A stretch of 64,000 nucleotides of DNA from Escherichia phage LF82-4: sequence record PV660448. The stretch is one strand, 5' to 3'. The position numbers were made by a program, and so were the translations under genes. The notes below the pieces were generated by a model, which searched no databases, was not told the origin of the DNA, and was given only the letters and a program-made list of their open reading frames with translations. Below are positions 35,156 to 52,251 of the stretch, in pieces (positions within the stretch are counted from its first letter, which is position 1; every line of letters begins with the position of its first letter).

Positions 35156-35186
35156 GCAAAAAAGCCCCAACCTTTCGGAAGGGGCT
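35156..35186 (-). terminator. intrinsic terminator, copy 1 of 3 identical hairpins
   Basis: minus strand AGCCCCUUCCGAAAGGUUGGGGCU followed by UUUUUUG; 5 nt after stop of 35191-35748. Confidence 0.6.
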
Positions 35187-35780: not shown

Positions 35781-35809
35781 CAAAAAGCCCCAACCTTTCG
35801 GAAGGGGCT
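35781..35809 (-). terminator. intrinsic terminator, copy 2 of 3 identical hairpins
   Basis: same 24-bp hairpin plus U-tract, 7 nt after rI stop. Confidence 0.6.
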
Positions 35810-49999: not shown

Positions 50000-50305
50000 T
50001 TAATTTTTCCAACTTAACAACTTGTAGTGTCCTTCATTCGTACGAGGTTTATCCCAATAGATATTAATAAACGATGTCTCACCAATAGAAGTCGGCGGTT
50101 TTTTCTCTACAGTAAGACCTTCGCTTTCTAACCACTCAATGACTTTTGTAGATAAAGCTAAAGAAACATGTAATGGACAACGACAGTATTTTTCACCTTT
50201 AGCTGAAGACTCGTACATCATTTCTAAAATACGTTTTTGCACTTTTTTAAAAATAGTTTCAGCAGATTCTTCAGATTTTTTATTCAGTTCAGTGTAAAGA
50301 CTCAT
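50000..50305 (-). CDS. hypothetical protein (101 aa)
   Basis: track ORF with ATG. Confidence 0.55.
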   Translation of the reverse strand: MSLYTELNKKSEESAETIFKKVQKRILEMMYESSAKGEKYCRCPLHVSLALSTKVIEWLESEGLTVEKKPPTSIGETSFINIYWDKPRTNEGHYKLLSWKN

Positions 50306-50322
50306 AATATTCTCCTCTGCGG

Positions 50323-50362
50323 TTGATAAGTCTATAGTATCATGTCCTTAGAAGAAGTAAAC
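50323..50362 (-). promoter_or_regulatory. promoter-early stem-loop, family ttgataagtctatagtatca
   Basis: GTTTAC -35; 20-bp core identical to 49951-49970. Confidence 0.45.
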
Positions 50363-50392
50363 AACTTTTTAAACTTTTTCTGCCCTAGATAC

Positions 50393-50421
50393 CAAAAAGC
50401 CCCAACCTTTCGGAAGGGGCT
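50393..50421 (-). terminator. intrinsic terminator, copy 3 of 3 identical hairpins
   Basis: same 24-bp hairpin AGCCCCUUCCGAAAGGUUGGGGCU plus U-tract. Confidence 0.55.
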
Positions 50422-50462
50422 AAGCCTTGCGGCAACCTTGTCGGGGTTTCCACCTACTAGGT

Positions 50463-50554
50463 AAGTGTTTGTACGAAACGCCGGGATTCGAACCCGGTTA
50501 TTAAGCAGTTGACGCTACTCAATATTTTTAAAAGGCCATATCTCGACCATATCC
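50463..50554 (-). ncRNA. tRNA-like structured RNA candidate (acceptor stem plus canonical T-arm, non-canonical interior)
   Basis: minus strand 7-bp acceptor pairing CGGAACG/CGUUUCG and T-arm CCGGG-UUCGAAU-CCCGG; no canonical D/anticodon arms found by hand; lies in 330-nt ORF-free gap. Confidence 0.3.
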
Positions 50555-50732
50555 GAACGTTCCGTCAAAAACGCTACTCGGCTTACGGCAAAGATATTTC
50601 CTCGAATCGATAATTCTGTGCGCCGTTTCTGCTGTGATGTAAGGGGATATTAACGAATCATAAAGATTTATTAAGACCAGTCCTTACTCAGGGAACATCA
50701 GTCCGACGACTTACCGGTAGCGACCCGGCTTC

Positions 50733-51077
50733 TTATTTTGGCATATCATCAATTTGCTCTCGACGCCGACGCCATAGATTAATCGCTTCATAAACACATT
50801 CAGCATTTGGTATATGGCGACAATAGTATAGTGATTCGCGTTTCTGGAACCGATGTTGCAATGGGATTTCGTTTAAAAGGTCTTTACGGTCAAAGTATTC
50901 AAAACTAGTTAACCCGGAACGGTTTTTAAGAAACTTCCAATGGCCAAATTCATTTTGGAAATAAACGTAATCAGCGTGTTGATATAATGAATTAATCAAC
51001 CGGTCGGAAATAACTGTATCCTGTTCGTTAAAATAAAACGTTAAATCATGAACTACCAGATAAATATTGCCTTTCAT
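50733..51077 (-). CDS. hypothetical protein (114 aa)
   Basis: ATG start; 8 nt after HEG stop. Confidence 0.55.
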   Translation of the reverse strand: MKGNIYLVVHDLTFYFNEQDTVISDRLINSLYQHADYVYFQNEFGHWKFLKNRSGLTSFEYFDRKDLLNEIPLQHRFQKRESLYYCRHIPNAECVYEAINLWRRRREQIDDMPK

Positions 51078-51084
51078 ATTTTCC

Positions 51085-51753
51085 TCACTTAAATTTTAGT
51101 TTATAGCCTTTAATCCAACCTTCCGGAATAGGATCGGTTTTCTTAATTTTCTTAGATTTCTTTTCTTCTAATGAATGAATCCACATAGTACCAAACTGGG
51201 AATTTTTCTCGCCTTGTTGGTGTTTGTTCCTGGCGTGGGTATCTTTCATTTTAGCAATAGTTTCGGAAGTATGATTTTTATTTAAAAACGACTTAGTGCT
51301 AGAGAATTTTTCTCTGTATTCAGGTAAAGTCCACAGATGCTTTAATTTCTCTGAACCCATTTTACGATATTTTTCTTGAAGCACTTCATCAGAATCAAAT
51401 CTCTCTTTAAAAGCTTTGGCTCCTTTAATAGAGGCTTCTTTCTTTTTATAATTAAATTCGTAAGTATTTAAATGGTCCCAACCACCTTCGCCACCAAGTT
51501 TTAAATTATATACGTCAGAACGATTCAAAAATTCTTCGTTTACGATATTTTTCTCGGCTTCAAACATCTGCTCTTTAGTGTCAAAGAATTCTAAAATTTC
51601 TTTATTAAAATTTTCTATACCATACTTGTCTTGGGCTCTTTTTAATAATTTACCAGAACCCATATATCCATCATCTAAATTTTCGGTAGAATGAGCGCCT
51701 ATATAGATTTTATTATTAATTTTATTTGTTATTTTATAAGTGTAATGGAACAT
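51085..51753 (-). CDS. GIY-YIG homing endonuclease (SegB-like) in tRNA region
   Basis: 222 aa; GIY-YIG YTYKITNKINNKIYIGAH, NUMOD3-like repeats KNHTSETIAKMK and GEKNSQFGTMW. Confidence 0.8.
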   Translation of the reverse strand: MFHYTYKITNKINNKIYIGAHSTENLDDGYMGSGKLLKRAQDKYGIENFNKEILEFFDTKEQMFEAEKNIVNEEFLNRSDVYNLKLGGEGGWDHLNTYEFNYKKKEASIKGAKAFKERFDSDEVLQEKYRKMGSEKLKHLWTLPEYREKFSSTKSFLNKNHTSETIAKMKDTHARNKHQQGEKNSQFGTMWIHSLEEKKSKKIKKTDPIPEGWIKGYKLKFK

Positions 51754-51794
51754 AAATATCTCCTATTTCTAAGAGTATTTATGTTCCCAAAATA

Positions 51795-51866
51795 TGGCCC
51801 TGGCTGGTTTCGATCCAGCTACCTATCAGTTATGAGCTGACAGCTCTCCCATTGAGCTACAGGGCC
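51795..51866 (-). tRNA. tRNA with anticodon CAU (Met or Ile2-type)
   Basis: 72 nt cloverleaf folded by hand: acceptor GGCCCUG/CAGGGCC, D-arm GCUC/GAGC, anticodon stem GUCAG/CUGAU with loop CUCAUAA, T-arm GCUGG/CCAGC; no encoded CCA. Confidence 0.8.
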
Positions 51867-51960
51867 TTAATAACTTTCTATTATGAAAGGCACTTTAGAG
51901 CACCTTTGGTAATAGAGGGTAGATTAATAATAACACATAATTCTTAAAGCAAATTACGTT

Positions 51961-52251
51961 TTACCATACCATATTAATGTAATTATACTCAATACATTCA
52001 AGATTTAAAGGATTCTTGAAAATATCATATTCAAGAGGACCTTTTTCTGTTTCAATAAAGAAATCAAAGTTCACACTATTAAATTTGCGGTCTTCCCAAA
52101 GTAATTTAACCTGTGAAGATGAACGGTCGACGTAAACCTTTTCAACTTCAAAGTGGGTCAAAATACCATAGTAATCGACTAGTGCTTTAGCTGCACGTTG
52201 ATCGCTTTCATATCCATTCTCAACGGATTTTACCTTAGCATAAAGAATCAT
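51961..52251 (-). CDS. hypothetical protein (96 aa)
   Basis: track ORF. Confidence 0.55.
   Translation of the reverse strand: MILYAKVKSVENGYESDQRAAKALVDYYGILTHFEVEKVYVDRSSSQVKLLWEDRKFNSVNFDFFIETEKGPLEYDIFKNPLNLECIEYNYINMVW

Follow-up and report, generated by a model that had tools for sequence, protein, structure and literature searches.

The window, i.e., the whole 64,000-nt stretch of DNA analyzed here, comes from a T4-type (Mosigvirus-like) phage, and its minus strand carries, in this order, tRNA-Met, a seg-like ORF, a homolog of RB69ORF150c, rnaD, rnaC, and a terminator. Judged from the sequence, an element described in an earlier note as tRNA-like very probably (at about 0.9) belongs to the RNA C (species 1 RNA) gene, of which it covers the 3′ two-thirds and whose product has an architecture derived from tRNA; this figure refers to the identity and architecture of RNA C, not to its function.

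Stable RNA Genes at the End of the tRNA Cluster

The tRNA-Met gene (51866–51795, minus strand) is detected by ARAGORN and by Rfam at the gathering thresholds. The 222-aa ORF downstream of it (51085–51753, minus strand) has a GIY-YIG domain and represents a seg-like homing endonuclease. It sits exactly where relatives, e.g., ATK47, carry tRNA-Arg, between tRNA-Met and the RB69ORF150c homolog; as far as both junctions, its flanks are near-identical to those in the relatives, with a single mismatch each. The start codon of this ORF lies in a perfect 15-bp hairpin, GGAACAUAAAUACUC...AGAUAUUUAUGUUCC (51747–51787, minus strand), which surfaced as a spurious miRNA match and is similar to a hairpin that has been proposed to block translation initiation of T4 segB (PMC2330249).

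The homolog of rnaD (T4 species 2 RNA) is found at 50617–50736 of the minus strand and matches T4 at 99 of 118 aligned bases, with three gaps (84%). It shares bases with the stop codon of the preceding ORF (50733–51077), starts with a 5-bp hairpin with a 7-nt loop, and ends in ...CACAG, as opposed to ...CACC followed by A (CCA-like) in T4. A convergent SNP in rnaD arose during adaptation to a semi-permissive host (2025 study). Homologs of rnaD are present in 734 phage records and are more variable than those of rnaC, with conserved 5′ and 3′ ends and a variable or replaced center. The fold of rnaD itself, including the consensus fold, does not look like that of a tRNA. The AU-rich spacer GAAUUA between rnaD and rnaC (50611–50616, minus strand) is identical to T4 at five of six positions, and its final five bases match the 5-nt leader, AAUUA, AAUAA, or AACAA, that follows the tRNA CCA end in other genera.

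RNA C is a 139-nt tRNA-like stable RNA, known and sequenced in phage T4 since the 1970s. Its homolog in the window occupies positions 50472–50610 of the minus strand (139 nt), with the ends transferred from the T4 annotation. In the full-length alignment, 137 of 139 bases are identical to T4 rnaC (NC_000866, 70908–71046), which bears out the suggestion of the earlier note that the element could be a stable small RNA like T4 RNA C or D; both substitutions, C-G to U-G and U-G to U-A, keep the pairing. The locus is already known: it is a homolog of T4 rnaC that is annotated in some GenBank records, and the annotators of ATK47, RB3, RB33, and Aplg8 labelled it rnaC (in ATK47, the matching stretch reads "rnaC, small stable RNA; species 1 RNA"). 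Rfam holds no family or model for RNA C, and ARAGORN gives no match, hence the membership in the RNA C family rests on sequence homology. The covariance model R1, constructed from 22 homologs, scores the window copy at 162.8 bits. A blastn search with positions 50300–50800 against GenBank phages matched 969 T4-type records, the best matches being Mosigvirus-like Escherichia phages at 96.5% identity.

The 3′ trailer between rnaC and the terminator (50471–50422, minus strand) is identical to T4 at 40 of 50 positions (80%). This 50-nt stretch contains the well-conserved sequence CCCCGACAAGGUUGCCGCAA and may be the site of 3′ processing. It is followed by a hairpin with a U-run (50394–50421, minus strand), read from the sequence as an intrinsic terminator that marks the end of the tRNA/stable-RNA transcription unit. 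The consensus scanner misses this terminator due to a UU/UU mismatch in the stem; in the same promoter/terminator scan, promoter-like sites were not above those in shuffled sequence. As first reported, the terminator is repeated: two more exact copies of the 28-nt sequence AGCCCCTTCCGAAAGGTTGGGGCTTTTT are found in the window, at 35159–35186 and 35782–35809 (minus strand), and the repeated cassette could be a recombination site.

The 330-nt ORF-free gap that had drawn attention to the locus is genuine, with no minus-strand ORF of at least 30 aa between 50422 and 50710, and is fully explained by rnaD, rnaC, and the terminator. The arrangement is similar to that in T4, where rnaC and rnaD (71053–71171) are found at the end of the tRNA cluster: in both phages rnaC lies on the strand of the tRNA genes, with rnaD upstream across a 6-nt AU-rich spacer and the terminator downstream. 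The upstream content differs, as here the seg-like gene replaces tRNA-Arg, and the RB69ORF150c homolog is found 5′ of rnaD.

Comparative Model of the RNA C Fold

The fold was assessed in two alignments, A4, comprising 22 distinct rnaC homologs, and A5, comprising 31 sequences aligned via R1 (30 distinct rows from approximately ten genera). In this comparative model, the conserved fold is a tRNA-derived four-way junction formed by a 7-bp acceptor stem, a 70-nt arm 1, a 9-bp arm 2, and a T-arm. RNAalifold on A4 yields such a junction, in which compensatory changes are seen at 24 of the 40 pairs. The explicit structure pairs 93.8% of cells in A4, compared to 38–51% with the 3′ partners slid by 1–3 columns; 24 pairs show double changes, and none of 500 shuffles reaches the observed values. 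Similarly, 94.0% of cells are paired in A5 (35–51% in the slid controls), with double changes in 27 pairs; here, none of 500 shuffles attains four of the five measures, and the remaining one, the number of further pair types, is attained by two. Folded singly, the window RNA C has the same shape as the consensus, with a minimum energy of −50.2 kcal/mol (z = −4.55; 0 of 200 shuffles as good), and of seven divergent homologs folded independently by minimum energy, five adopt this architecture as well.

The 5′ strand of the acceptor stem, CGAUUCG (50603–50609, minus strand), pairs with the 3′ strand CGUUUCG (50474–50480, minus strand), that is, A4 columns 2–8 with columns 134–140. The third pair is A-U in 11 and G-C in 11 of the 22 A4 sequences, and A-U in 12 and G-C in 18 of the 30 sequences of A5. 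The stem contains a tandem U.U in 28 of 30 sequences, replaced by U-A and C-G in the Yersinia phage lineage. The earlier note had correctly identified the 3′ strand, but paired it with CGGAACG instead of its true partner at 50609–50603; moreover, the boundaries it gave, 50463–50554, stop short of the 5′ strand of its own stem and cover about 60% of the 139-nt unit. Downstream of CGUUUCG come U (50473), A (50472), and the CAA trailer (50471–50469), so that the 3′ end reads GUACAA; this trailer is invariant in the 22 A4 sequences and is shared by 30 of the 31 A5 sequences. RNA C does not encode a CCA end.

The T-arm, CCGGG-UUCGAAU-CCCGG (50497–50481, minus strand), directly precedes CGUUUCG at 50480–50474, as had been observed. 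Its 5-bp stem is paired in 98% of cells, the middle pair being G-C in 12 and U-A in 15 of 30 sequences, and it closes the 7-nt loop UUCGAAU; the T-loop motif GGTTCRANTCC occurs in the 64-kb window once, at this site (shuffle mean, 0.19). As both the acceptor stem and the T-arm are real and covary, the label "tRNA-like" is fair. In the Kanagawavirus lineage (L004:406–548, L033), the T-loop is UGCAUGC, not UUCGAAU, hence strict tRNA mimicry at the elbow is not universal.

Arm 1 (50533–50602, minus strand) is an irregular 70-nt hairpin closed by AGG/CCU at the D-stem position. Compensatory changes affect most or all pairs of every one of its four inner helices (14 of 16 pairs in A4 and 15 of 16 in A5), and the shape is retained even where the sequence is replaced. 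By analogy with tRNA, we infer that AGG/CCU is the equivalent of the D-stem, and the long hairpin would then be an insertion in the D-loop. Just 5′ of CCU, at the position of G18-G19, there is an invariant unpaired GG (50537–50536, minus strand); in tRNA, G18-G19 dock on the T-loop. Kanagawavirus has CG instead of GG alongside its non-canonical T-loop, a single event; the co-change would turn G18.U55 into C-G and keep G19-C56, which is only suggestive.

Arm 1 is followed by a single-stranded A-rich linker, UUUAAAAA (50525–50532, minus strand), whose AAAA, together with U50524 opening arm 2, forms the motif AAAAU, invariant in 22 of 22 A4 sequences. Arm 2 (50499–50524, minus strand), at the position of the anticodon arm or the variable arm, has a 9-bp stem and the 6-nt loop CGUCAA (50514–50509); 98% of its cells are paired, and six to seven of the nine pairs show compensatory changes. 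One unpaired A separates arm 2 from the T-arm.

The loop of arm 2 is complementary to the apical loop of arm 1, UUGACG (50563–50568, minus strand), proposed as its kissing partner. The complementarity extends over all six positions in each of the 30 distinct sequences. Only two lineages vary, both in a compensatory manner: the Klebsiella/Marfavirus lineage has UUGGCG with CGCCAA (A-U to G-C), and the Yersinia/Tegunavirus lineage has UUGAUG with CAUCAA (C-G to U-A); no one-sided change in the hexamers is seen among the 30 distinct sequences. The hexamer persists in lineages whose arm 1 is otherwise replaced, and A5 is not biased towards these pairs, since the pseudoknot is outside model R1. The two independent events are good, though not conclusive, sequence evidence that the loops of arms 1 and 2 form a kissing contact, either within or between molecules. 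We found no published description of the covarying loop pair in a search that did not reach the older T4 literature; this pair is the only new evidence presented here. The hexamers also contain an anticodon-like GUC opposite a codon-like GAC (Asp); in the Yersinia variant the codon, GAU with AUC, still specifies Asp, and the Klebsiella variant has GGC with GCC (Gly). The codon/anticodon look may be coincidental.

Compared to canonical tRNA (RF00005), RNA C shares the 7-bp acceptor stem formed by both RNA ends, the 5-bp T-stem and its UUCGAAU loop, and the location within tRNA gene arrays; in addition, the D-stem position is occupied by a 3-bp helix, whose 3′ strand is preceded by an unpaired GG. 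It differs by a hairpin of approximately 60 nt inserted at the D-loop position; by an 8-nt linker in place of nucleotide 26; by arm 2, whose 9 bp and 6-nt loop replace an anticodon arm (5 bp, 7-nt loop); and by the tandem U.U in the acceptor stem and the lack of CCA.

Distribution of RNA C and Alternative Readings

The rnaC segment alone matches 750 phage records, 683 of them (approximately 91%) at at least 95% identity: 268 records at 99% or higher, 415 at 95–99%, 64 at 80–90%, and 3 at 60–80%. Distant homologs are found in Kanagawavirus, Moonvirus, Karamvirus, Tegunavirus, Gelderlandvirus, Marfavirus, Gaprivervirus, Edwardsiella phage PEi20, and others. Four of these genera (Moonvirus, Karamvirus, Gelderlandvirus, and Tegunavirus) have the homolog within a tRNA array, with tRNA-Met or tRNA-Trp before it and tRNA-Gly or tRNA-Trp after it; in the first three genera it starts 5 nt past a tRNA CCA end, and in all four the next tRNA follows after approximately 5–8 nt. 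Three pattern scans of IMG/VR revealed no lineage beyond enterobacterial Tevenvirinae-type phages, the extra matches being due to chance and rejected by the covariance model; a pattern scan yielded 0 hits in 185,579 genomes of bacteria and archaea (representative bacterial genomes) and two in metagenomes, both rejected by the covariance model. Most phage records miss rnaC and rnaD, or carry a spurious "hypothetical protein" or "tRNA-OTHER" there.

This distribution bears on the possibility that RNA C is a purely cis-acting operon element, i.e., a processing or stability cap that recruits RNase P/RNase E or shields the 3′ end. Both in T4 and in the window, no other structured unit lies between it and the terminator, and a tRNA-like shape suits processing enzymes; however, in Moonvirus, Karamvirus, and Gelderlandvirus the homolog is found mid-array and not at the 3′ end, the invariant AAAAU, the kissing hexamers, and GG exceed the needs of a generic processing signal, and in T4 the excised RNA is abundant late in infection. 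We consider an exclusively cis-acting role unlikely.

The class-II-length tRNA considered in the earlier note would be 92–96 nt long, with acceptor stem ACGGAACG/CGUUUCGU and unusual D and anticodon arms. The sequence CGGAACG (50558–50564, minus strand) can indeed pair with CGUUUCG in the window (7 bp, one G.U), and in phage vB_EcoM_G9062 (L040:347–442), whose rnaC has an A-run longer by one A, ARAGORN reports this very element as "tRNA-??? (aa)" (GenBank, "tRNA-OTHER"), hence the misfold was an attractive near-miss rather than a careless one; the Rfam model of tRNA-Sec (RF01852) aligns likewise, over 50473–50565. However, this pairing shows no compensatory change, has A.C at one position in 10 of 22 sequences, and fails at three of seven pairs in the Yersinia lineage, while most of the 5′ strand belongs to the covarying arm 1: CGGAACG runs from the end of the apical loop through the 3′ strand of the hairpin that carries this loop, with four of its seven bases in this hairpin, where all four pairs are compensatory, and two more in the loop. 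The tRNA-Sec score, 16.6 bits (E = 5.5), is far under the gathering threshold of 47 bits; at E up to 10, Rfam matches in 50300–52000 are limited to chance-level tRNA-Sec, isrK, ceN54, and MIR9563, and at the gathering thresholds the only match in the window is tRNA-Met (RF00005 cut-off, 29 bits). ARAGORN, too, reports only tRNA-Met in the 64-kb window, with no call at the RNA C locus, nor in T4 rnaC. There is no 7-nt anticodon loop and no CCA, and the annotated T4 RNA is 139 nt long. A class-II-like tRNA is therefore highly improbable.

Equally improbable is a decayed tRNA, also suggested initially, that would be kept as a pseudogene by its location in the tRNA cluster or by gene conversion driven by a homing endonuclease. 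The acceptor stem and the T-arm are indeed tRNA-like, with no usable anticodon arm; the GIY-YIG seg-like gene is approximately 500 nt upstream; and SegB drives the inheritance of the T4 tRNA region (PMC2330249). However, a conversion tract fails to explain why rnaC (98.6% identity to T4) is better conserved than rnaD (84%), which is nearer to the endonuclease gene; the trailer is 80% identical. A pseudogene predicts substitutions in rnaC at the neutral rate across phages, whereas the opposite is observed: approximately 91% of the 750 records are at least 95% identical, and there are 27 compensatory pairs and several invariant loop motifs across about ten genera. Besides, RNA C accumulates stably in T4.

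Finally, small proteins encoded by plus-strand ORFs at 50509–50613 (34 aa) and 50342–50464 (40 aa) can practically be dismissed: the ORFs exist, and many GenBank records overlap the locus with a "hypothetical protein," but they are short, one has a TTG start, their strand is opposite to that of all surrounding genes, the 34-aa ORF would be shifted out of frame by 1-nt indels in near-identical homologs (deletion in L024, insertion in G9062, U/A run), and the substitutions track RNA base pairs, not codons.

Processing and Possible Function

The acceptor/T-arm module is of the kind recognized by tRNA-processing enzymes. Given the tRNA-like acceptor stem and T-arm, RNA C is probably excised from the operon transcript by the tRNA-processing machinery; the same is suggested by the AU-rich leader, whose 5 nt are conserved, and by the shortness of the trailer that precedes the following tRNA. 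RNase P or RNase E would cut at this leader, and exonucleases would trim the CAA-containing trailer; the compact fold would then make the excised RNA C stable. These roles of RNase P and RNase E are proposed from the tRNA-like shape of RNA C, its genomic context, and older work on T4. The T4 cluster forms one transcript with the tRNAs, which terminates after the species I gene (PMC2330249). Rfam gives no match for the element, which the earlier note would have counted against it, but the near-identical T4 gene has a stable transcript: on Northern blots, T4 RNA C is stable and accumulates late and to high levels (PMC9697503).

The function of RNA C is given as unknown in T4 reviews and papers of 2010, 2022, and 2025, and in a full-text literature search that did not extend to the classic T4 papers, no work on its function or structure went further than "unknown function." Tentatively, RNA C might be a non-decoding tRNA mimic that binds a tRNA-recognizing factor via the acceptor/T-arm module, thereby titrating or recruiting it, while the invariant linker and loops would supply the specificity.

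Generally, the tRNA-like domain of tmRNA, YrlA, and viral tRNA-like structures are non-decoding and reuse the acceptor/T-arm module for tRNA-recognizing enzymes. The tRNA-like domain of YrlA closes differently, its ends forming the Ro-binding stem, and the tRNA-like structures of plant viruses are 3′-terminal and aminoacylatable, with a CCA end. A tmRNA was rejected as a candidate for the locus, as ARAGORN reports none in the window and there is no tag reading frame.

The loop pair allows for another reading, which we regard as rather doubtful: a tRNA-derived RNA whose anticodon-like CGUCAA is held by UUGACG on the inserted arm, so that it acts as a decoy or forms an oligomer. If the contact is intramolecular, RNA C would be a self-locked, nuclease-resistant tRNA decoy, which could titrate a tRNA-targeting or tRNA-activated host factor, e.g., an anticodon nuclease or a defense effector. 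If it is intermolecular, head-to-tail kissing would produce RNA-only oligomers resembling the cage-forming ROOL, GOLLD, and manA. These RNAs, whose function is not known, are similar to RNA C in being phage-encoded, adjacent to tRNA genes, and highly structured; they assemble by RNA–RNA contacts (PMC12286853; bioRxiv 10.64898/2026.07.01.735769), and the complementary loops of RNA C could act between molecules. They differ in having no sequence or structural homology to RNA C and no Rfam match to it, and RNA C is much smaller and visibly derived from tRNA.

The conservation of RNA C is extreme, with two differences in a 139-nt RNA between genera, while the neighboring sequence is 80–84% identical. 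The comparative model corrects the acceptor stem and identifies the D-loop insertion and the covarying loop pair, which provide handles for mutation. Should the loop-contact reading be true, either as a decoy or as an oligomer, it would assign a role to an RNA that has lacked one for about 50 years.
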